Below, piece after piece: positions 29,605-38,097 of a stretch of DNA of 64,000 nt. The translations under genes and the position numbers were made by a program. Each line of letters opens with the position of its first letter. Positions within the stretch are counted from its first letter, which is position 1. The notes below the pieces were generated by a model. The model saw only the letters and a program-made list of their open reading frames with translations, did no database searches and was not told the DNA's origin. Source of the DNA: Patescibacteria group bacterium (GTDB lineage Bacteria; Patescibacteriota; Minisyncoccia; Minisyncoccales; Staskawiczbacteraceae). The stretch spans positions 6,527-70,526 of the forward strand of contig JAHIOM010000013.1 of the NCBI GenBank assembly GCA_018895235.1, given 5' to 3'.

Positions 29605-30156
29605 CTAGTAAGCAGGGCTTGTTATTTTTCCTAAAGCAGCCAAAGGGAAAACCCGAACAAAAACCTTGCCGATAATATTCTCTGCTGGCAAGGGCCCCCA
29701 GTTTCTTGAATCTGAGGAGTAAGCCCGATTGTCGCCTAAAACAAAGTACTCTTTTTCTCCTAGAATAATCTGCAGATTTCCATAGGTATTATCTTCCGCG
29801 TATGGAAGATAAATTTCTTCATTTAAAACTTGCGTTTGATTATTTTTAGTATAGATAAAAATCTTACCGTCCTTGATTTCAATGGTTTCGCCCGGTAGTC
29901 CAATAATTCTTTTAATGAATCTGTGGCTTGGATTTTTGGGGTATTTAAAAACAACAACATCTCCTCTTTGAGGGGAATTTAATCTATACGATATCTCATC
30001 AATAATCAGGTAGTCGCCGGAATGGAAGTTTGGGACCATTGAATCACCTTTAACTATAAACGGCTGAAATAAAAAATAGCGGATAGGTACCACTATAGCC
30101 AAAGCAATGAGAAATATTTTTGCAAGTTCCCAAATATATAAAAGTGTCTGTTTCAT
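29605..30156 (-). CDS. lepB: signal peptidase I
   Basis: N-terminal TM helix, S26 catalytic Ser context GDSMVPNF, and Lys box RGDVVVF. Confidence 0.85.
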   Translation of the reverse strand: MKQTLLYIWELAKIFLIALAIVVPIRYFLFQPFIVKGDSMVPNFHSGDYLIIDEISYRLNSPQRGDVVVFKYPKNPSHRFIKRIIGLPGETIEIKDGKIFIYTKNNQTQVLNEEIYLPYAEDNTYGNLQIILGEKEYFVLGDNRAYSSDSRNWGPLPAENIIGKVFVRVFPLAALGKITSPAY

Positions 30157-30292
30157 ACCCCGTTAGAAGTCCTTGACGAAAAAATTTTAGGATAAAATTT
30201 TTTCTACCCTAAGGACAAATTATAATTTGATATACTTTTCTATAATGCCACGATAAAAGTCCTTGTTATAATACTCAGACTTCTAACGGGGC
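30157..30292. repeat. 136-bp segment bounded by a perfect 14-bp inverted repeat (CCCCGTTAGAAGTC / GACTTCTAACGGGG), with an internal direct repeat AAGTCCTTG and an extended -10-like TGTTATAAT
   Basis: Seen in sequence immediately upstream of the lepB ATG. MITE-like geometry or a 5'-leader stem. Confidence 0.35.
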
Positions 30293-30339
30293 ATAACAGT
30301 ATAATTTTCCAATTGTTATTATTTTAGCAACTTTTTTAC

Positions 30340-30636
30340 TTTTTAGCAAGCCCCCACACCAATTTTGGCAATGAACTTTAATTGCCCACAACGACAGGCG
30401 AAGCCACTTCGCTTTTTATCGTCGGAATATCCAAGAACATTGTTGAAATTGGTGTGGGGGCGAGCAACGAAGAAGATTGTCTGAATTCGCCCGCCCGAAG
30501 GGAAGCCAGAAAATGAGATGATTTCTGCGTTGCTCCTACTCAATGTAGTGTAAAACTACATTTCGGTCGTCGCGCCTTGAAATCATCTCATTTTCTGGCT
30601 TCTAAAGCTGGCTCTGGTTCGAATCCTGCACCCTAA
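30340..30636. ncRNA. candidate structured ncRNA or selfish element: serial perfect inverted repeats ending in a tRNA-like GGTTCGAATCCTGCACCC
   Basis: A 14-bp perfect IR (30351-30364 / 30447-30460) and a 22-bp perfect IR (30504-30525 / 30579-30600) enclosing an 8-bp hairpin (30542-30562). There is no credible ORF; the 66-aa minus ORF is low-complexity. Identity and strand are unresolved. Confidence 0.3.
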
Positions 30637-30672
30637 AAAAAGAAAAAAGGACCACTAATTTTAGCAGTCCTT
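30634..30672 (-). terminator. rho-independent terminator of the 30689-31315 gene (the hairpin also reads as a weaker + strand terminator)
   Basis: Minus strand: AAAGGACTGCTAAAATTAGTGGTCCTTTTTTCTTTTTTT. Confidence 0.55.
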
Positions 30673-30688
30673 TATTTATCTGGTTAAG

Positions 30689-31315
30689 TTAAACCTTAAT
30701 CTCTTCTGATGGGCGTAAACAAACTATATTACATCCTTTCTGCACTAATTTGTGATAATGATCTCTACTAATAGCTGGCGTGGCAAAAACCACGCTGCTT
30801 GCTCTATTAGCAATGAAAATTTCGCGCAAAGCCAACAAACTAATCGGATCCCAAAGAGAAAAATCACCGCAAAGAAGAACATTGCCTCGAATTTCGGGAT
30901 AAGGAATATCTATCTGTTTGGACAAACCAAGCGATTGAGATATAAGTTTGCTACGCAGATTAATCAATTGTCGAAGAATCGGAGTTTCTCGAGGGGTTTG
31001 ATTATCACGGCAAATCTTGATTTCAAAATCTTCTCCTATAGCGAAAACCTTGGCATTTCCATGAGTTGTCAGAACTTTCCATCTACTCGGACTTAATTGG
31101 TGCAAGAAAACACAGCAAGTGTCTTTTAAATTGTGGGCGAGATTAGCAGCCAGCGACGCACTTATTTCTGAAAATTTTCCCGCTTTGTGTTTATCAACAA
31201 CCCCAACTAACAAATCAATCTGCGGACACTTTTTTCTGACAATCCGCGAAAGTGGACCAACTAAATCGGTTCGGGTTAATGGTTGCATCGCAAATCCTGT
31301 TGTTTTACCGTCCAT
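30689..31315 (-). CDS. hypothetical protein (moderately GC-rich)
   Basis: 208-aa ORF with atypical composition. Fragments (VLLCGDFS, THGNAKV) faintly resemble metallophosphoesterase motifs but occur in non-canonical order. Confidence 0.35.
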   Translation of the reverse strand: MDGKTTGFAMQPLTRTDLVGPLSRIVRKKCPQIDLLVGVVDKHKAGKFSEISASLAANLAHNLKDTCCVFLHQLSPSRWKVLTTHGNAKVFAIGEDFEIKICRDNQTPRETPILRQLINLRSKLISQSLGLSKQIDIPYPEIRGNVLLCGDFSLWDPISLLALREIFIANRASSVVFATPAISRDHYHKLVQKGCNIVCLRPSEEIKV

Positions 31316-31593: not shown

Positions 31594-31826
31594 TTCTGAA
31601 TTCCTTTCCTGATTTTGACCAGTGCCATAATCACATTTACATCCCTGTACCCCCTGAATCTACCTAGGGCGCTCTTGCTTTTTTCATTTTCTTTCCTTTC
31701 TTATCAATATTTTTTTGTGAATGAACTATGACCAACCTGAATTTTTCTATTTTATATCTTTAATAATCCTTTGTCAATTTTGAAGAACCATGATATATAA
31801 AATGTATATAGAGACCTTTAATCTAT

Positions 31827-31891
31827 ATAATTGCTCGTTCGGTCGGAAAATAAAAATAAATTTTCATTTTCCTTCCTCATTCGTAATTATG
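31827..31891 (+). repeat. E-family repeat element E1 (ATAATTGCTCGTTCGGTCGG-hairpin-CTCATTCGTAATTATG); its 3' end supplies the pth ATG
   Basis: Shares its arms with E2 (35255-35316), E3 (33484-33549) and E4 (38006-38061, reverse). Central stem GGAAAAT/ATTTTCC. Confidence 0.55.
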
Positions 31892-32472: not shown

Positions 32473-33471
32473 TTAAAGCCTAGAAATTTTTTGTTTCAGC
32501 TCATGGCCGTTGCAATGTTTTAATACCCCAAAATATGACTGCAGGGTTTGGTTGAATAAATCTTTTGATATCTTGCCCTTGTCAAAATCAAGGGATTTTA
32601 ATTTTATCTTTTCCAGCATTCTCTTTTTTGTTTTTGTTCTTAAAATCCTATGATATGGGAGGTCAACGTAACCCAGAAAATCAATTCCTTGATGATGTTT
32701 TTTAATTATTACTTTACCTTTATGTAAAGACAATTTCAGTTTCTCTTTTAAGAACTCACTAATTACGGAAATAATACTTTCAAGATGTTCTCTATCACTA
32801 GTTAAGATAACGAAATCGTCGCAATAGCGGATATAATGTTTTATTCTCAAATTTTGTTTAATAAAATAATCCAATTCGTTAAGGTATATGTTGGCGAATA
32901 ATTGGCTTGTAATATTTCCTAATGGAAGGCCTTTGTCGGACAATGTTGAAAAACTTTTAATGATTTTTTCTATTAACCAAACGGCGTTTGTGTCTTTAAT
33001 TTTCTTTTTAATCAAAAAAGTCAGAATATCTTGGTCAATCGAATTAAAGAACTTTTTAATGTCGCATTTTAAGATAAAACAGGTTTTGGTTCTGTTTTTA
33101 CTGGTTTTTCTGGCGAACATCTGAAGTCGGCTGACCGCTTTATGTGTTCCTTTGGCGTTTCTACAGGAATAAGAATCGAATATGAATGATTTGTCGAAAA
33201 TAGGATACAAAATTCTGAATATGGCGTGGTGCAAAACTCTGTCTCCTACGCAGGCTTTATGGATTTTTCTAGGTTTTGGGTCGCAGATGTTAAATGATGT
33301 ATAATCAGAATGAGAATAGATTTTTATTTTTAATTCGTGATGGAGTTCAAAAATATTGTTTTCTAAATTGTATTCAAACTCCTGAACGTCTTTCTTTTTT
33401 CTTTTTCCTTTTTTAAATTCGTCCCAAGCTAAAAACAAGTTATCAAGAGAAATAATCTCTTTAAACATATT
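32473..33471 (-). CDS. diversity-generating retroelement reverse transcriptase (the ORF extends to 33579 via TTG through a poly-G tract; the likely start is Met at 33471)
   Basis: RT motifs: LFLAWDEFKKGKRKKKDVQEFEYNLENNIFELHHEL (DGR-RT-type N-terminus), KPRKIHKACVGDRVLHHAI (motifs 1-2), GLPLGNITSQLFANIYLNELD (the [I/L]GxxxSQ form of motif 4), YIRYCDDFVIL (YxDD), FLGY (motif 7). Confidence 0.85.
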   Translation of the reverse strand, partial: NMFKEIISLDNLFLAWDEFKKGKRKKKDVQEFEYNLENNIFELHHELKIKIYSHSDYTSFNICDPKPRKIHKACVGDRVLHHAIFRILYPIFDKSFIFDSYSCRNAKGTHKAVSRLQMFARKTSKNRTKTCFILKCDIKKFFNSIDQDILTFLIKKKIKDTNAVWLIEKIIKSFSTLSDKGLPLGNITSQLFANIYLNELDYFIKQNLRIKHYIRYCDDFVILTSDREHLESIISVISEFLKEKLKLSLHKGKVIIKKHHQGIDFLGYVDLPYHRILRTKTKKRMLEKIKLKSLDFDKGKISKDLFNQTLQSYFGVLKHCNGHELKQKISRL

Positions 33472-33483
33472 ATATCTCTGGAT

Positions 33484-33549
33484 ATAATTATTACGCTCGG
33501 TCGAAGAACAAAAATAAATTTTTTCTCTTCTCTCTCGCTTATAATTATG
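33484..33549 (+). repeat. E-family repeat element E3 between the RT start and avd
   Basis: ATAATTATTACGCTCGGTCGAAG...CTCGCTTATAATTATG; 60 of 66 positions shared with E4 reverse complement. Confidence 0.55.
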
Positions 33550-33567
33550 GAAAACTTTTCCTCTAAT

Positions 33568-33577
33568 CCCCCCCCCC
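33568..33577. repeat. homopolymeric C10 (G10 on the RT strand) tract 13 nt upstream of the avd TTG start
   Basis: Counted directly: ctctaatCCCCCCCCCCaac. With C10 the upstream ATG (33547-33549) reads into a TAA at 33586-33588. With C9 that ATG is in frame with avd. Confidence 0.8.
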
Positions 33578-33589
33578 AACCAGTTTAAT

Positions 33590-33919
33590 TTGCCAATTTT
33601 GCATAGAGTTTATGAATTATATAAATTATTTTACCAATATGAGCAACACCTTCCTCAAAAAGATCGCTATTGTATCGGACAAAAATGCGAAAAAATAATT
33701 TTAGATATTTTAGAACTGATTATTGGAACAATTCAGTCACCTAAAAATAGAAAACTAGAACTACTGAATGAAGCAAGCATAAAGTTAAATATTTTAAGAA
33801 TAATTATTCGTTTATCAAAAGATATAAAAGCATTAGACTTTAAAAAATATATTACCCTACAGGAAAATATAAATGAAATAGGAAGAATGCTAGGTGGCTG
33901 GATAAAATCACTAAAATAA
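33590..33919 (+). CDS. avd: Avd-like DGR accessory protein (four-helix-bundle, 23S rRNA intervening-sequence protein family); TTG start as drawn
   Basis: LPQKDRYCIGQKCEKIILDI...NEIGRMLGGWIKSLK matches the IVS-protein/Avd family (LPKeekY.LgdQlrRAa....EIGKMLnGLIksl). It is divergent from the RT and followed by the terminator hairpin AACACCCCAAATGGGGTGTT (33931-33950). Confidence 0.65.
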   Translation: MPILHRVYELYKLFYQYEQHLPQKDRYCIGQKCEKIILDILELIIGTIQSPKNRKLELLNEASIKLNILRIIIRLSKDIKALDFKKYITLQENINEIGRMLGGWIKSLK

Positions 33920-33970
33920 TCTTTAACAAAACACCCCAAATGGGGTGTTCATCTTTGATAGAGAAGGAAG

Positions 33971-34085
33971 TTCCTAACGGAGGAAAGGCCGATGTTGTCA
34001 TTGCGATTGTCATCCCAGTAGTTGTTGACATTGAGACCACTTGAGTCGAAGTTACCGATATTGACACGGTTGCCGTCCGAGTTAA
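33971..34085 (-). repeat. DGR template repeat (TR); the sense strand is minus
   Basis: 115 bp aligning colinearly with 34379-34493. Translated in the target frame it gives NSDGNRVNIGNFDSSGLNVNNYWDDNRNDNIGLSSVR, with AAC (Asn) codons at the variable positions. Confidence 0.85.
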
Positions 34086-34305
34086 GAATTTGCCCATTTT
34101 TATCCAAACCACTGAAAGTTGTCTTTATTTTAATAGAAAGATTCCTTTCTGTATTTTATTCGGGAGCAGTCTCCTAGGCGACATCTCCGCTAAAAACGGG
34201 CAAGAAGTTCAGTCTTTATTAGATTAATTCTCGCGAGGCTAAGCCGTAACCCAACCTTCATTAACGAGATATTATATTTTATCAGTTTTAAAAAGAAAAA
34301 TAAAT

Positions 34306-34334
34306 GCCCCTCGACTGCTATGCAATCGAGGGGC
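34306..34334 (-). terminator. GC-rich hairpin (GCCCCTCGA-loop-TCGAGGGGC) 45 nt downstream of VR/IMH; target-gene terminator and possible DGR homing-enhancing stem-loop
   Basis: 9-bp perfect stem followed on the minus strand by a T-rich tract. A GC-rich hairpin/cruciform downstream of VR is a known DGR feature in Bordetella phage BPP-1. Confidence 0.5.
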
Positions 34335-34371
34335 TTCAAGGGTTCAATCTTCAAACATCAAAGATTCAAGA

Positions 34372-35256
34372 CTAAACCTTCCTGACGGAGGAAAGGCCGA
34401 TGAGGCCATGGCGAGTGCCATCCCAGTAGTGGCTGACATCGAGACCACTCCAGCCGAAGCTACCGACATCGACACGGAGGCCGTCCGAGCTAATATCCGA
34501 GCAATGAACATATACTTGCTCGAATAACCGCTCGTTAGTGGCCATAAAATGACCGATAATGGTGTAAACCATTACTTGGGCAGTTGGCGTTTCCTCATCC
34601 TTGGCGAGAAGCGATTGCTGCTCATTCCAGGTTTTGGAGGTCGAGTTGCTGACTGGCGTCTTGCGGACAAGTTGCCAGCTGACCTCGCCGTGTTCTTTGG
34701 CAAACTTTTCCTGGTTATGCCAGTCCTGGCTGTAGAACAATCCTTTGTCCTGCACCTTTCCACGAATCTCGAGGATCGAGATTGGGAAGATTGCCACAAA
34801 GACATGAGTGTCCTTGCACTCCTGGAGAACGGCTTCGGAGAACGGAATCTCGGAGAGGATGGCGAGTTGCTGCTTCGTGGAATTAACCCCGAAGTGCTTG
34901 ATCGCCTCCTCGACACCGAAGAAGTTCTTGCCCATGATTTCATGGGCGCGCTTCTGAGATGTCGTAGCTTCGTAACCACCTCTCTGAATCAACCCTACCA
35001 CCTTTGTGGCAAGGTCGTTGCCCTTTGAGTCAATGACCTTCTGGGCAAGTTCGTCCGTGAGCCCCGCCTTCTCCATTTTGAGAAGAAATTCGTGCTCATT
35101 GTGCACCGAAATAGTGCGTTCATCTGCTTGGCTTACCATGGTATTCATAGCACACCTTCCTTTCTTATAAAGAACAAAAACTCGTTGCTGATTACCCGCA
35201 ACTAGGCTATTAAGCACTATGCTTAATATGACTATATTATTGCAGCTACGCTGCAT
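34372..35256 (-). CDS. DGR target (variable) protein with a C-terminal CLec-like variable region; GC-rich, no signal peptide (alternative start M37 at 35148)
   Basis: C-terminus ...YVHCSDISSDGLRVDVGSFGWSGLDVSHYWDGTRHGLIGLSSVRKV* is encoded by the VR. The VR ends 5 nt before the stop codon. Confidence 0.8.
   Translation of the reverse strand: MQRSCNNIVILSIVLNSLVAGNQQRVFVLYKKGRCAMNTMVSQADERTISVHNEHEFLLKMEKAGLTDELAQKVIDSKGNDLATKVVGLIQRGGYEATTSQKRAHEIMGKNFFGVEEAIKHFGVNSTKQQLAILSEIPFSEAVLQECKDTHVFVAIFPISILEIRGKVQDKGLFYSQDWHNQEKFAKEHGEVSWQLVRKTPVSNSTSKTWNEQQSLLAKDEETPTAQVMVYTIIGHFMATNERLFEQVYVHCSDISSDGLRVDVGSFGWSGLDVSHYWDGTRHGLIGLSSVRKV
34379..34493 (-). repeat. DGR variable repeat (VR) at the 3' end of the target gene
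   Basis: About 20 mismatches versus TR over 115 bp. About 18 lie at positions where the TR sense strand has A (T on the + strand), with substitutions to C, G or T. The IMH-like 3' end GGCCTTTCCTCCGTCAGGAA differs from the TR (..GTTAGGAA) by one base. Confidence 0.85.
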
Positions 35257-35316
35257 AATTACTCATTCGGTCGAAATGAGAACAAGTTCTCATTTCTTTC
35301 TTATTTTATAATTATA
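35255..35316 (+). repeat. E-family repeat element E2 (perfect 11-bp central hairpin GAAATGAGAAC-aa-GTTCTCATTTC) abutting the target-gene start codon
   Basis: ATAATTACTCATTCGGTCGAAATGAGAACAAGTTCTCATTTC...TATAATTATA. Confidence 0.55.
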
Positions 35317-35381
35317 ACAAATTATATTATTTATGTCAAGCTTTTGACAGAACTAACAATCGGTATTATAATTTAGGTAAA

Positions 35382-37346
35382 ATGCAACCGGCACAAAATA
35401 CCAGTCAGGTTTTAATCGTCTCAATTACCCCCTATTTTTTAGAAAAGGGGTTTTTGTGGTTTAAAGAAAATCTCAAAAAGATATTAAATGCTCAAAAGTC
35501 CCAAACATTTTTTCAAGATAATGTTTTATATTTGGAAAAAGATCAGGTTTTCAACCTGTCTCTGCTTTTAAGAAAATTGGAAGAAATGGGTTATGAAAAA
35601 GTTCTAAGGATTTCGGAACCGGGAGAATTTTCCCAGCAAGGCGGGATAATTGATGTTTTTCCTATAAATACAAAAAACGCTGTCAGATTTGATTTTTTAG
35701 GGAACAGAATTGAAACCATAGAATTATTAGATGCAGCGGTTGAAGATGAAGAAAAGGCAAAAGAAATACTAAAGAAAAAACTGAAATCCCAAAGGTTATT
35801 TTCTGATTTGAAGGGATTAAAACCCGGTGATTATTTAGTACATCTTGACCACGGCATAGGTAAATTCAATAATCTTCTGTCGCATAATAACGAAAACTAT
35901 TATCTTTTAGAATATAGCGAAGGGGATAAACTTTATGTGCCCTTGGGCCTTGAAAGAAAACTATCCCGATATGTCGGTTTTGTCGAACCGAAAGTTTCCC
36001 GCCTGGGTTCTTCTTTGTGGCAAAAAACAAAAAAGAAAATTAAAGAAGGGGCTGAAAAACTGGCAAAAGAATTGCTCGGGATTTATGCAAAAAGAGAGAT
36101 TGCTAAAAGACCTGCTTATCTGCCCAACGATGAATTTGATTCAGCAATTTCTTCAAATTTCAAATACGAAGAAACGCCAGACCAATCACAAGCAATTCAG
36201 GAAGTAATGAAAGACCTGGAAAAAACAAAACCAATGGACCGACTGGTCTGCGGCGATGTCGGATTCGGCAAAACCGAAGTCGCTTTAAGGGCAGCGGTTA
36301 AGGTTGTAAAGTCCGGCTATCAAACGGTTTTAATCGCACCAACAACAATTCTGGCTGACCAACATTTCCAGAATATTAAGAGCAGATTACAAGGATTACC
36401 AATTAAGGTTGCACTTTTAACTCGACTCCAATCGAAAAAAGAACAGAAAAAAATTATTGAAGATTTGAAAAACAATAAAGTTGATATTTTAATAGGCACG
36501 CACCGGATTTTGTCTGGCGATATTGTTCCGCTACTTTTTCAAAGGGACGAAACCGGGCTTTTGATAATTGATGATGAACAAAGGTTCGGCGTCAGACAAA
36601 AAGAAAAGTTAACGCAGTTGAGAAGCAAGATTGATATTTTGTCTTTATCGGCCACTCCCATCCCCCGCACCCTCTATCTTTCCCTCTCATCTTTAAGAGA
36701 CGTAAGTCTTATCCAAACCCCGCCCGAAGGCAGATTATCAGTTAAAACTTTTATCCTCCCTTGGTCAATAAAAATTGTTAAAATGGCAATCGAACAAGAA
36801 CTAAAACGCGGCGGCCAGGTTTATTATCTTCATAACCGAGTGGAGACAATTGATTTAACCAAAAAAGCGCTCCAAGATTTATTGCCCAATGTAAAATTTG
36901 CTATCGTTCACGGCAGAATGAGAGAAAAGGAATTAGTAAAAATAATGGATAATTTCCAACAAAAATCTATTAACGTTTTGATAGCAACAACTATTATTGA
37001 AAATGGTTTGGATATTCCAAATGTAAATACTTTAATAGTGTCTGATGCTACCCGGCTCGGATTATCCCAAGCCTATCAAATAAGGGGCAGGGTCGGCCGT
37101 TCCAATATTCAAGCTTTCGCCTACTTTTTTTATAATAAACAACTGAAAGGAAAAGCAGCTATAAGGTTGGCTGTTTTGAAAGAAGCCGAAGAATTGGGAT
37201 CTGGCTATCGTGTTGCAATGAAAGATTTGGAATTAAGAGGAGCGGGCAATATTTTGGGAAAAGAGCAGTCAGGCAGCATTAATAAAGTCGGTCTGAACTT
37301 ATATTGCCAGATGGTCGCTGAAGCGGTTGAAAAATTCAAAGAATAA
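35382..37346 (+). CDS. mfd: transcription-repair coupling factor Mfd lacking the N-terminal UvrB-homology domains
   Basis: RNAP-interacting domain (DYLVHLDHGIGKF), SF2 helicase motifs (GDVGFGKTEVALRAA, DEQRFGV, SATPIPRT), and C-terminal TRCF domain. At 654 aa it is well short of the ~1150 aa of full Mfd. Confidence 0.8.
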   Translation: MQPAQNTSQVLIVSITPYFLEKGFLWFKENLKKILNAQKSQTFFQDNVLYLEKDQVFNLSLLLRKLEEMGYEKVLRISEPGEFSQQGGIIDVFPINTKNAVRFDFLGNRIETIELLDAAVEDEEKAKEILKKKLKSQRLFSDLKGLKPGDYLVHLDHGIGKFNNLLSHNNENYYLLEYSEGDKLYVPLGLERKLSRYVGFVEPKVSRLGSSLWQKTKKKIKEGAEKLAKELLGIYAKREIAKRPAYLPNDEFDSAISSNFKYEETPDQSQAIQEVMKDLEKTKPMDRLVCGDVGFGKTEVALRAAVKVVKSGYQTVLIAPTTILADQHFQNIKSRLQGLPIKVALLTRLQSKKEQKKIIEDLKNNKVDILIGTHRILSGDIVPLLFQRDETGLLIIDDEQRFGVRQKEKLTQLRSKIDILSLSATPIPRTLYLSLSSLRDVSLIQTPPEGRLSVKTFILPWSIKIVKMAIEQELKRGGQVYYLHNRVETIDLTKKALQDLLPNVKFAIVHGRMREKELVKIMDNFQQKSINVLIATTIIENGLDIPNVNTLIVSDATRLGLSQAYQIRGRVGRSNIQAFAYFFYNKQLKGKAAIRLAVLKEAEELGSGYRVAMKDLELRGAGNILGKEQSGSINKVGLNLYCQMVAEAVEKFKE

Positions 37347-37918: not shown

Positions 37919-38005
37919 ATTATTCTCCCATAAAAATGTTGTCTAAGAGCTGGTTTAGATTCTACATTAAAATCCTAAAATTTCAAGGGTTCTGGTCTTT
38001 TGTGC

Positions 38006-38061
38006 TATAATTGCAAGCGAGGGAGGAGAAGAAAAAAACATTTTTATTCTCCGACCGAGTG
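38006..38061 (-). repeat. E-family repeat element E4 (reverse orientation) upstream of dprA
   Basis: Reverse complement CATAATTGTGCACTCGGTCGGAGAATAAAAATG...CTCGCTTGCAATTATAG. Central stem GGAGAA/TTCTCC. Confidence 0.55.
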
Positions 38062-38097
38062 CACAATTATGTGGTAATAACCACAATAATTATTAGA

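Follow-up and report, generated by a model that had tools for sequence, protein, structure and literature searches.

The closest described relatives of the element analyzed here are the diversity-generating retroelements (DGRs) of the Candidate Phyla Radiation (CPR, or Patescibacteria), which consist of a target gene ending in a variable repeat (VR), a template repeat (TR), the accessory gene avd and a gene for a reverse transcriptase (RT). The first survey of CPR DGRs is reportedly that of Paul et al. 2017. In the scheme of Wu et al. 2018 (PMC5758913), 90% of candidate-phyla DGRs have architecture B3, TR-(avd)-RT, and Roux et al. 2021 (PMC8144416) described a cellular DGR clade restricted to Patescibacteria ("DGR clade 2"), for which targets without a signal peptide, a transmembrane segment or a recognisable domain were reported. 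The prototype DGR, that of the Bordetella phage BPP-1, has the order mtd-avd-TR-brt. Here we analyze a DGR locus in a stretch of 64,000 nt from a Patescibacteria group bacterium (contig JAHIOM010000013.1, positions 6,527 to 70,526, assembly GCA_018895235.1). We refer to this whole stretch as the window, and all coordinates are those of the window.

A chromosomal DGR of the dominant CPR architecture

The locus comprises five principal parts, listed here in the order in which they are read on the minus strand:

34372 to 35148, minus strand: target gene, 258 aa, whose helical N-terminus varies and precedes a conserved core predicted to be of the C-type-lectin/formylglycine-generating-enzyme (CLec/FGE) type
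34379 to 34493, minus strand: VR, forming the final 38 codons of the target gene, in frame and without stop codons
33971 to 34085, minus strand: TR, 115 nt with 33 adenines and many AAC codons
33590 to 33919, plus strand (opposite to RT, TR and target): avd, 109 aa from a TTG start
32473 to 33471, minus strand: DGR RT gene, 331 aa from the ATG at 33468, as in the public gene call

We consider it very probable that this is a chromosomal DGR of the dominant CPR type, B3, with the order target, TR, reversed avd and RT. It shares with the CPR DGRs (PMC5758913; PMC8144416) the host group (Patescibacteria, after the NCBI names of identical target proteins), the gene order, the reversed avd and a chromosomal, non-phage setting, as well as a short target without signal peptide, transmembrane segment or known domain, a C-terminal VR and an AAC-rich TR. 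The window copy differs from them not in kind but by a shortened leader, a tract of ten cytosines (C10) and, in the space separating avd from RT, an intergenic repeat.

With BPP-1 the locus shares Avd, adenine-specific differences between TR and VR, and an invariant GC-rich 3' end of the VR that is slightly unlike the TR, and the BPP-1 RT (Protein Data Bank, PDB, entry 8ub7) is the closest solved relative of its RT. The two systems differ in gene order, as avd lies downstream of the TR and on the opposite strand in the window, and in the position of the structured RNA, which in BPP-1 is the spacer 3' of the TR (Rfam RT-10) and in the window lies 5' of the TR. The 3' boundary of TR and VR holds five differing bases in BPP-1 and one or two in the window; the BPP-1 cruciform adjoins the homing site, whereas the window hairpin stands 45 nt off the VR and is terminator-like; and the BPP-1 target is a phage tail fibre, whereas that of the window is a cellular protein.

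For comparison we used 79 target-homologue loci of GTDB genomes (L numbers below denote these loci). Both an RT gene and avd are found within 6 kb in 38 of the 79 loci, and 33 of those 38 have the order target, TR, reversed avd, RT. In one cluster of targets (more than 90% identity), twelve members are nearly identical up to about residue 215 and diverge at many positions of the VR; the target family clearly diversifies in nature.

An earlier reading of this DNA, made from the sequence only, had regarded three features of the locus as unusual. The features themselves are real: avd is on the opposite strand, the target has no transmembrane-like segment, and the element adjoins pth and mfd rather than a prophage. 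None of them is unusual, however, given the order in most relatives and the prevalence of B3 (PMC5758913), the published description of targets (PMC8144416), and the fact that a housekeeping, non-prophage setting is typical of the Patescibacteria clade. The same reading called the DGR complete, which is correct as a list of parts, but several features described below cast doubt on its current activity.

Differences between the template and variable repeats fall at adenines

With an offset of 408 nt on the minus strand, TR and VR form a gap-free alignment of 115 nt that contains 19 mismatches. TR adenines account for 17 of these, with 10 changes to G, 5 to C and 2 to T. Two mismatches involve other bases: TR position 34043 has a C>G beside two A>G changes (TCA>TGG), and TR position 33976, within the invariant 3' end, has a T>C. 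This agrees closely with the sequence-only reading, which gave about 20 mismatches over 115 bp, nearly all at TR adenines, with a C-to-G change and an edge position as the exceptions. When bases were classified over 118 nt, differences were seen at 17 of the 33 TR adenines and at 4 of the 85 remaining positions (p = 2.6e-8, Fisher's exact test), and the bias to TR adenines thus holds on careful alignment. All but one of the 17 changes at adenine sites affect codon position 1 or 2 of the target frame (16/17). In this frame the TR translates to NSDGNRVNIGNFDSSGLNVNNYWDDNRNDNIGLSSVR and the VR to SSDGLRVDVGSFGWSGLDVSHYWDGTRHGLIGLSSVR, and re-translation matched the sequences originally proposed exactly. 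Adenine occurs at position 1 or 2 in 20 TR codons, which corresponds to ~10^17.7 possible protein variants. A scan with the TR in which adenines were treated as wildcards found no second VR in the 64-kb window.

Over the 22 nt past the last variable site TR and VR are the same save for one T/C, and the invariant 3' end of the VR, UCGGCCUUUCCUCCGUCAGGAA, is accordingly one base off the TR. Homology stops at GGAA|G in the VR and GGAA|C in the TR, and the difference between the initiation of mutagenic homing sequence (IMH) and its TR counterpart (IMH*) is therefore present, with a putative role in homing. The homology ends at 34379, next to the target stop codon (34374-34372), where an IMH-like 3' end differing from the TR by one base had been placed before. 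A TR-specific C at the 3' boundary was counted by eye in ~19 of 27 related TR/VR pairs, where it replaces a G of the VR (GGAAC versus GGAAG) or an A (CGGCAG versus CGGAAG). Adenine-biased TR/VR pairs were found in 26 related loci.

Reverse transcriptase and Avd

The RT is matched by Pfam RVT_1 (78 bits), and its open frame extends upstream of the ATG to a TTG at 33579. Its best match in the PDB is the bRT of the Bordetella phage (8ub7; E = 1.7e-45, 159 bits, query residues 36-325); the next matches have E = 1.6e-22 or weaker, and group II and retron-type enzymes reach at most 84 bits. The motifs LGNITSQ, the DGR form of motif 4 ([I/L/V]GxxxSQ), and YCDD are present, and the catalytic motifs and the reading frame are intact. 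In the alignment of motif 4, GLPLGNITSQLFANIY of the RT corresponds to GIPIGSLTSQLFANVY of bRT. On these similarities the RT is best assigned to the DGR type, as had been proposed from the same two motifs.

Avd passes the curated cut-offs of both family models tested, with 87.2 bits versus a cut-off of 80 for NCBIfam NF033474 (DivGenRetAVD; model positions 1-104 of 104) and 71.8 bits versus 40 for Pfam bAvd. The 109-aa Avd-family gene that had been noticed between TR and RT is thus well founded, as a plus-strand open reading frame (ORF).

The divergent avd and RT genes are separated by one further feature:

33483 to 33577, plus strand: copy of an intergenic repeat, followed by an ATG at 33547 and the C10 tract (33568-33577)

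In most relatives the aligned starts of avd and RT are ~27-51 nt apart, and their ATG codons, identified by eye, are only a few nt apart. The ATG at 33547 would be in the avd frame if the tract held nine cytosines (C9); with the observed C10, the short frame that it opens stops 2 nt before the TTG start. In L010, a close relative, the corresponding tract is C9; read by eye, it is in the avd frame and encodes MPPP.... The public contig that we compared also has C10. The tract may be phase-variable, may represent a fixed frameshift, or may have arisen as an error in assembly.

The intergenic repeat is a ~65-nt element with four copies, at 31825-31890 (plus), 33483-33549 (plus), 35253-35320 (plus) and 38000-38072 (minus). 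Its parts follow the order (T/C)ATAATT, ~6 nt, TCGGTCG, a hairpin whose stem varies among copies, a CT-rich stretch and (T)AATTAT(G). Besides the copy between avd and RT, copies lie upstream of pth, in the spacer between target and mfd, and upstream of a FabA-like gene. Two copies end at an ATG, which is the pth start codon in one case and the ATG upstream of avd in the other. The element could be a module of promoter plus 5' leader, or a small mobile repeat.

A structured leader and a tail of the template RNA

The putative template RNA adds the following features:

34088 to 34274, minus strand: structured leader of the TR RNA, shortened (match to covariance model R1, 125 bits, E = 4e-35)
33950 to 33970, minus strand: 3' tail of the TR RNA, CUUCCUUCUCUAUCAAAGAUG, with a motif CUUC..CUC[U/C]AUC common to relatives
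33930 to 33949: hairpin AACACCCCAAATGGGGTGTT, between the avd stop codon and the TR tail

From the target stop codon to the TR, relatives present in order a 3' untranslated region (UTR) of (C)TTGA repeats, a terminator with its T-run, a -10-like TATAAA/T box, and a block of ~250 nt that reaches the first base of the TR. In the window, a -10-like TATAAT can be read at 34276-34271. RNAalifold applied to 22 relatives predicted 69 pairs in the ~250-nt block, 45 of them with compensatory double changes; among the pairs are those of a long-range stem of 12 bp, the 3' strand of which reaches as far as the TR. The covariance model R1 was built from the 22 relatives, with the window sequence excluded. 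Searches with it recovered the leader from all but one of the 38 loci that carry RT together with avd (37/38), many of which had contributed nothing to the model. Leader copies in RT-bearing loci measure 238-319 nt and score 120-284 bits, and the window copy measures 187 nt.

Shorter remnants of the leader occur in six loci that have the target and lack an intact RT (L015, L016, L045, L066, L067, L073). Furthermore, for ~20 target homologues with full 6-kb flanks neither RT nor avd is near (L006, L015, L016, L019, L020, L028, L033, L039, L043, L045, L057, L061, L062, L065, L066, L068, L071, L073, L075, L078). Taken together, the cassette-less homologues and the leader remnants suggest that the cassette has been lost repeatedly and the target kept.

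At the gathering threshold Rfam returned no match for the leader of the window or of five relatives. Below the threshold, full-length matches to RT-16 (RF03019) were obtained for the window (27.1 bits, E = 0.054) and for L003 (25.7 bits), about half of the gathering value of 50. The leader shares with RT-16 AUAAAAUACAG and the enclosing long-range stem, and the match is on the correct strand and ends at the TR start; in relatives the leader is ~100 nt longer at its 5' end. The leader is not a member of RT-16 as curated. RT-16 is one of 19 RNA motifs near reverse transcriptase genes reported by Weinberg et al. 2017 (PMC5737381), who link only RT-10 to a DGR (the Bordetella phage spacer) and speculate that other RT motifs may be so linked too. 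A literature search for a connection of DGRs with RT-16, or with covariation and the template repeat, found nothing relevant. In the surveys PMC5758913 and PMC8144416 the structured leader, the pairing of leader and tail described next and the GC excess of the target are undescribed, a comparison that does not extend to Paul et al. 2017.

A leader segment 5' of the long-range stem, GAU[A/G]GAGAU.GAACUUCU, is unpaired in the consensus structure. When each locus was folded by itself, this segment was predicted to form a duplex with the last four bases of the TR (GGAA) and the next ~20 nt (C-UUCU...CUC[U/C]AUC). Relative to shuffled tails the duplex has a mean z of -2.9, and in 15 of the 22 loci the observed energy is matched or surpassed by no more than 2.7% of the shuffles. 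Compensatory pairs are seen as GGAUGGAG/CUCCAUCC in L008, L018 and L023, as GGAUAGAG/CUCUAUCC in L032, L064 and L074, and as GGGG/CCCC in L063. The TR-specific boundary C faces a leader C in the duplexes inspected. From these locus-by-locus duplex energies, set against shuffles, and from the compensatory examples named, we infer that the leader junction pairs with the 3' end of the TR and the tail, with weaker support than there is for the leader itself.

Past the hairpin at 33930-33949 the minus strand reads UUUGUUAAAG, which is weakly U-rich (UUUGUU). A hairpin of differing sequence stands at the equivalent place in 26 aligned relatives. This hairpin likely terminates avd and possibly the TR RNA as well. 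Its position directly after the TR suggests a separate short TR RNA and would make a co-transcript of TR and RT unnecessary. The sequence-only reading had supposed such a co-transcript, running antisense through avd, which is not needed with a hairpin between the TR and the avd stop.

Activity of the window copy

The locus might instead be a decaying or silenced DGR, in which the parts are still recognisable, the target is no longer diversified and the VR is frozen in one variant. We treat this as a real possibility, although we lean slightly against it. The following observations all weigh against a fully functional B3 element with the template RNA described above, and most of them are signs of attenuation. 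The window leader lacks model positions ~48-108 (~64 nt, including two conserved stems), its inner hairpin is degenerate, and with 187 nt and 125 bits it resembles the remnant in L016 (139 nt, 132 bits), which has no RT within 6 kb. The isolated leader-tail duplex of the window is no better than shuffles (z = -0.9); the minimum-energy fold of its whole transcript still contains the duplex. RNAalifold recovered only three leader-tail pairs from a MAFFT alignment of leader, TR and tail, because their spacing varies and there are two pairing registers. A terminator scan called the hairpin at 33930-33949 on the plus (avd) strand only. Between avd and RT there are ~85 extra nt, corresponding to the short intergenic repeat copy, and the C10 tract breaks the ATG-initiated frame of avd and leaves the gene with a TTG start that has no Shine-Dalgarno sequence. 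The C>G and T>C differences between TR and VR are not of a kind that adenine mutagenesis can yield. Four contigs encode an identical target protein and therefore share one VR, and one public contig is identical to the window (100% over 7.6 kb). Finally, loci of the family often keep the target while losing the cassette, as the ~20 cassette-less homologues and the six RT-less loci with leader remnants indicate.

On the other hand, neither the reading frame nor the catalytic motifs of the RT are damaged, Avd translated from the TTG start keeps an intact domain that spans the entire family model, the TR retains its 33 adenines in AAC-rich codons, and the VR is in frame and free of stop codons. 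The four contigs may come from one population or study, so that an identical consensus is weak evidence for a frozen VR. In addition, a break ~30 nt upstream of the VR ends the contig of a sibling assembly; hypervariable sites give rise to such breaks. The sole divergent member of the cluster, considered as a possible VR variant of the window element, was rejected as an assembly artefact (an inverted duplication with the contig end just upstream of the VR). The shortened leader, the C10 tract and the same VR in four assemblies make current activity uncertain, and we see in the window copy signs of a reduced variant of a DGR rather than of something different in kind.

The target gene and its product

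The target gene is flanked by the following predicted features:

35311 to 35339, minus strand: target promoter, TTGACA-17-TATAAT with 12/12 matches and an upstream TG, predicted from its match to the consensus
34335 to 34371, minus strand: target 3' UTR, with (C)TTGA repeated between stop codon and terminator
34306 to 34334, minus strand: target terminator hairpin, 13 pairs of which 9 are G-C, followed by ATTTATTTTT (T-run)

The start of the gene had earlier been placed at 35256. Position 35148 is likelier, as a strong Shine-Dalgarno sequence, the N-termini of homologues and the public annotation agree on it. In the spacer between target and mfd (35311-35372), two sigma-70 promoters with 12/12 consensus matches lie back to back, 5 nt apart; they diverge, one pointing toward the target with an extended -10 TG and the other toward mfd.

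The GC-rich hairpin that had been noticed 45 nt downstream of the VR is present, and owing to the T-run that follows it we read it as the intrinsic terminator of the target. Its position is kept and its stem sequences vary, both in DGR-linked and in orphan homologues. The 3' UTR holds four to six (C)TTGA repeats with a spacing of ~9-10 nt, an arrangement kept in most of 75 loci with or without DGR or RT, and in most relatives a small hairpin lies midway in this region.

Searches with the target, as a single sequence and as a profile, gave no usable sequence match in Pfam, NCBIfam or the PDB. Homologues are numerous, with more than 1,158 close ones and, at 50% identity, 2,045 representatives, and the named ones are Patescibacteria; the top matches, ~65-75% identical, are on contigs labelled as different candidate phyla. 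An AlphaFold2 model of residues 58-258 has a pLDDT (predicted local distance difference test score) of 98.1. Its fold is CLec/FGE, and its structural matches include the DGR proteins TvpA, Mtd and TaqVP along with dozens of animal C-type lectins. The C-type-lectin/FGE fold expected for the C-terminal part from the sequence is thus borne out as a prediction. TvpA of Treponema denticola (2y3c) and TaqVP of Thermus aquaticus (5vf4) are DGR variable proteins with an FGE-type C-type-lectin fold. The target is 10-17% identical to them, has no match to Pfam FGE-sulfatase or DUF1566, lacks a lipoprotein or secretion signal, and has a different, helical N-terminal part.

No transmembrane-like segment was found in the target (maximum Kyte-Doolittle value over 19 residues 1.22). 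Among distant relatives, P0168, P0173, P0179, P0204, P0208 and P0210 have a hydrophobic segment in their first ~25 residues, and the C-type-lectin core may be membrane-anchored or exported in some lineages. Tandem pairs of targets were also observed, close ones in L005, L006, L024 and L072, and a second, distant paralogue downstream in L014, L021, L027, L033, L054 and L067. In several tandem loci the VR regions resemble each other more than they resemble the TR.

GC excess of the target and the origin of the element

The target had been described as much more GC-rich than its host, and this holds both for the window (GC 0.52 versus 0.366) and for the family. The other genes of the cassette are not GC-rich (RT 0.31, avd 0.26). 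The GC content at third codon positions (GC3) is 0.65 in the target and at most 0.46 in the other long ORFs, except for a spurious ORF antisense to the target. In 73 related loci mean GC3 is 0.69 for the target and 0.42 for neighbouring ORFs, and in 68 of them the target lies above the highest neighbouring long ORF (Wilcoxon p = 1e-13). RT and avd in the related cassettes have a GC content at or below the host level. C is used in 0.72 of NNY codons of the target and in 0.36 of those of RT genes, and G in 0.62 and 0.34 of NNR codons, respectively. The excess spans the whole gene, being weaker at codons 172-218 (GC3 0.52), and is the same in target copies with and without a DGR. Target GC3 rises with that of the host (r = 0.60, slope 0.58) and lies above it by a constant offset.

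A recent horizontal transfer of the target, or of the whole cassette, from a GC-rich donor would account for a gene of GC 0.52 in a window of 0.366, and Wu et al. 2018 (PMC5758913) take atypical GC as an indicator of transfer for DGRs. We nevertheless judge such a transfer unlikely: the GC content of the accompanying RT and avd does not exceed that of the host, the excess is family-wide (68/73 loci), and DGR-less copies carry an equal offset. That target GC3 tracks host GC3 with a constant offset indicates a resident gene with a gene-specific bias rather than a gene from one donor. We also rejected depletion of adenines as the cause, since the A/T ratio of the sense strand is unchanged (1.3, like other genes), C and G both being raised at third codon positions. 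High expression of the target is a plausible explanation, given the 12/12 consensus promoter with TG, the strong ribosome-binding site and the conserved protein. No ribosomal-protein gene or other highly expressed reference gene was among the window ORFs tested. No explanation that was tested accounts for the GC3 excess.

The last alternative, that TR and VR are an ordinary diverged duplication beside an unrelated retroelement (group II, retron or defence RT) with an adenine bias arising by coincidence, draws on the facts that the best NCBIfam match of the RT is a group II intron model (150 bits) and that NCBIfam returned no DGR-RT family for it, but is refuted, and left with a negligible probability, by the adenine bias (p = 2.6e-8) and its recurrence in ~26 related TR/VR pairs, by an Avd above its cut-off, by the lead of bRT over the next relative of 23 orders of magnitude in E-value, by the lack of Rfam matches to intron RNA domains or retron msr/msd, and by NCBIfam scores that are all under cut-off (group II 150/300, Drt3a 77/200, retron 61/235, Drt2 48/390, AbiA 38/250). 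The profile searches thus do not group the RT with group II or retron enzymes, in line with its placement by the sequence-only reading, and the locus is best described as a B3 DGR of Patescibacteria.

Genomic surroundings

The neighbouring genes are those for a signal peptidase and HisRS, pth, mfd, the FabA-like gene, dprA and topA. The mfd homologue (35382-37346, plus strand) encodes only 654 aa, with UvrB-interaction, CarD/TRCF-RID and helicase domains, and shows no domain match past the helicase C-terminal domain. An mfd gene lies within a few kb of the target in L008, L021, L040 and L051 as well.

A separate cluster of inverted repeats occupies 30150-30650, with 40-nt arms at 30339-30378/30433-30472, perfect 24-nt arms at 30502-30525/30579-30602 and 17-nt arms at 30155-30171/30278-30294. 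It adjoins an unannotated ORF of 208 aa (30689-31315, minus strand). A search of this region against Rfam gave only spurious matches to microRNA precursors, on both strands.

Proposed mechanism and significance

We tentatively propose that B3 DGRs of candidate phyla use a differently built template RNA, in which a ~250-nt 5' domain and its pairing with the tail produce a closed-loop template; we put this forward as a conjecture that is somewhat more open to doubt than to belief. The priming and homing steps of the scheme are carried over from BPP-1. By analogy with that phage, a separate transcript of ~350 nt would start just past the target terminator and consist of the leader (34274-34088), the TR (34085-33971), a tail of ~20 nt and possibly the terminator hairpin. 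The structure predicted from relatives would place the leader junction, paired with the TR 3' end and the tail, beside the long-range stem that ends at the TR 5' end. Both ends of the TR would then be held together on one continuous helix, where cDNA synthesis must start, and the leader would do from the 5' side what the BPP-1 spacer does from the 3' side of the TR. As in BPP-1, a complex of RT and Avd would copy the TR to cDNA, misincorporating opposite template adenines, and the cDNA would replace the VR, the boundary being marked by the invariant GC-rich 3' end (...GGAAG in the VR, ...GGAAC in the TR). This would allow up to ~10^17.7 variants of a protein that is abundant and probably not membrane-bound, with the 20 variable codons on its ligand-binding face.

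DGRs of B3 architecture in Patescibacteria have already been catalogued by the thousands, and the window adds a well-annotated example. What goes beyond the published descriptions, Paul et al. 2017 aside, is the leader with its tail pairing, the GC3 excess of the target and the signs of reduction. The R1 model marks the template RNA of this clade, defines it as an RNA of ~350-400 nt in an uncultivated lineage, and reveals relics of lost cassettes. If the proposal is true, the leader replaces the 3' spacer of the Bordetella phage and gives a function to a relative of the orphan motif RT-16, and the window copy would be a natural deletion variant without two of the leader stems.

Roux et al. 2021 (PMC8144416) have already asked what role the target plays in these episymbiotic bacteria. 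Its C-type-lectin core, the usual lack of an export signal, the promoter and the GC excess together point to an abundant binding protein that is either intracellular or exported by an unconventional route.

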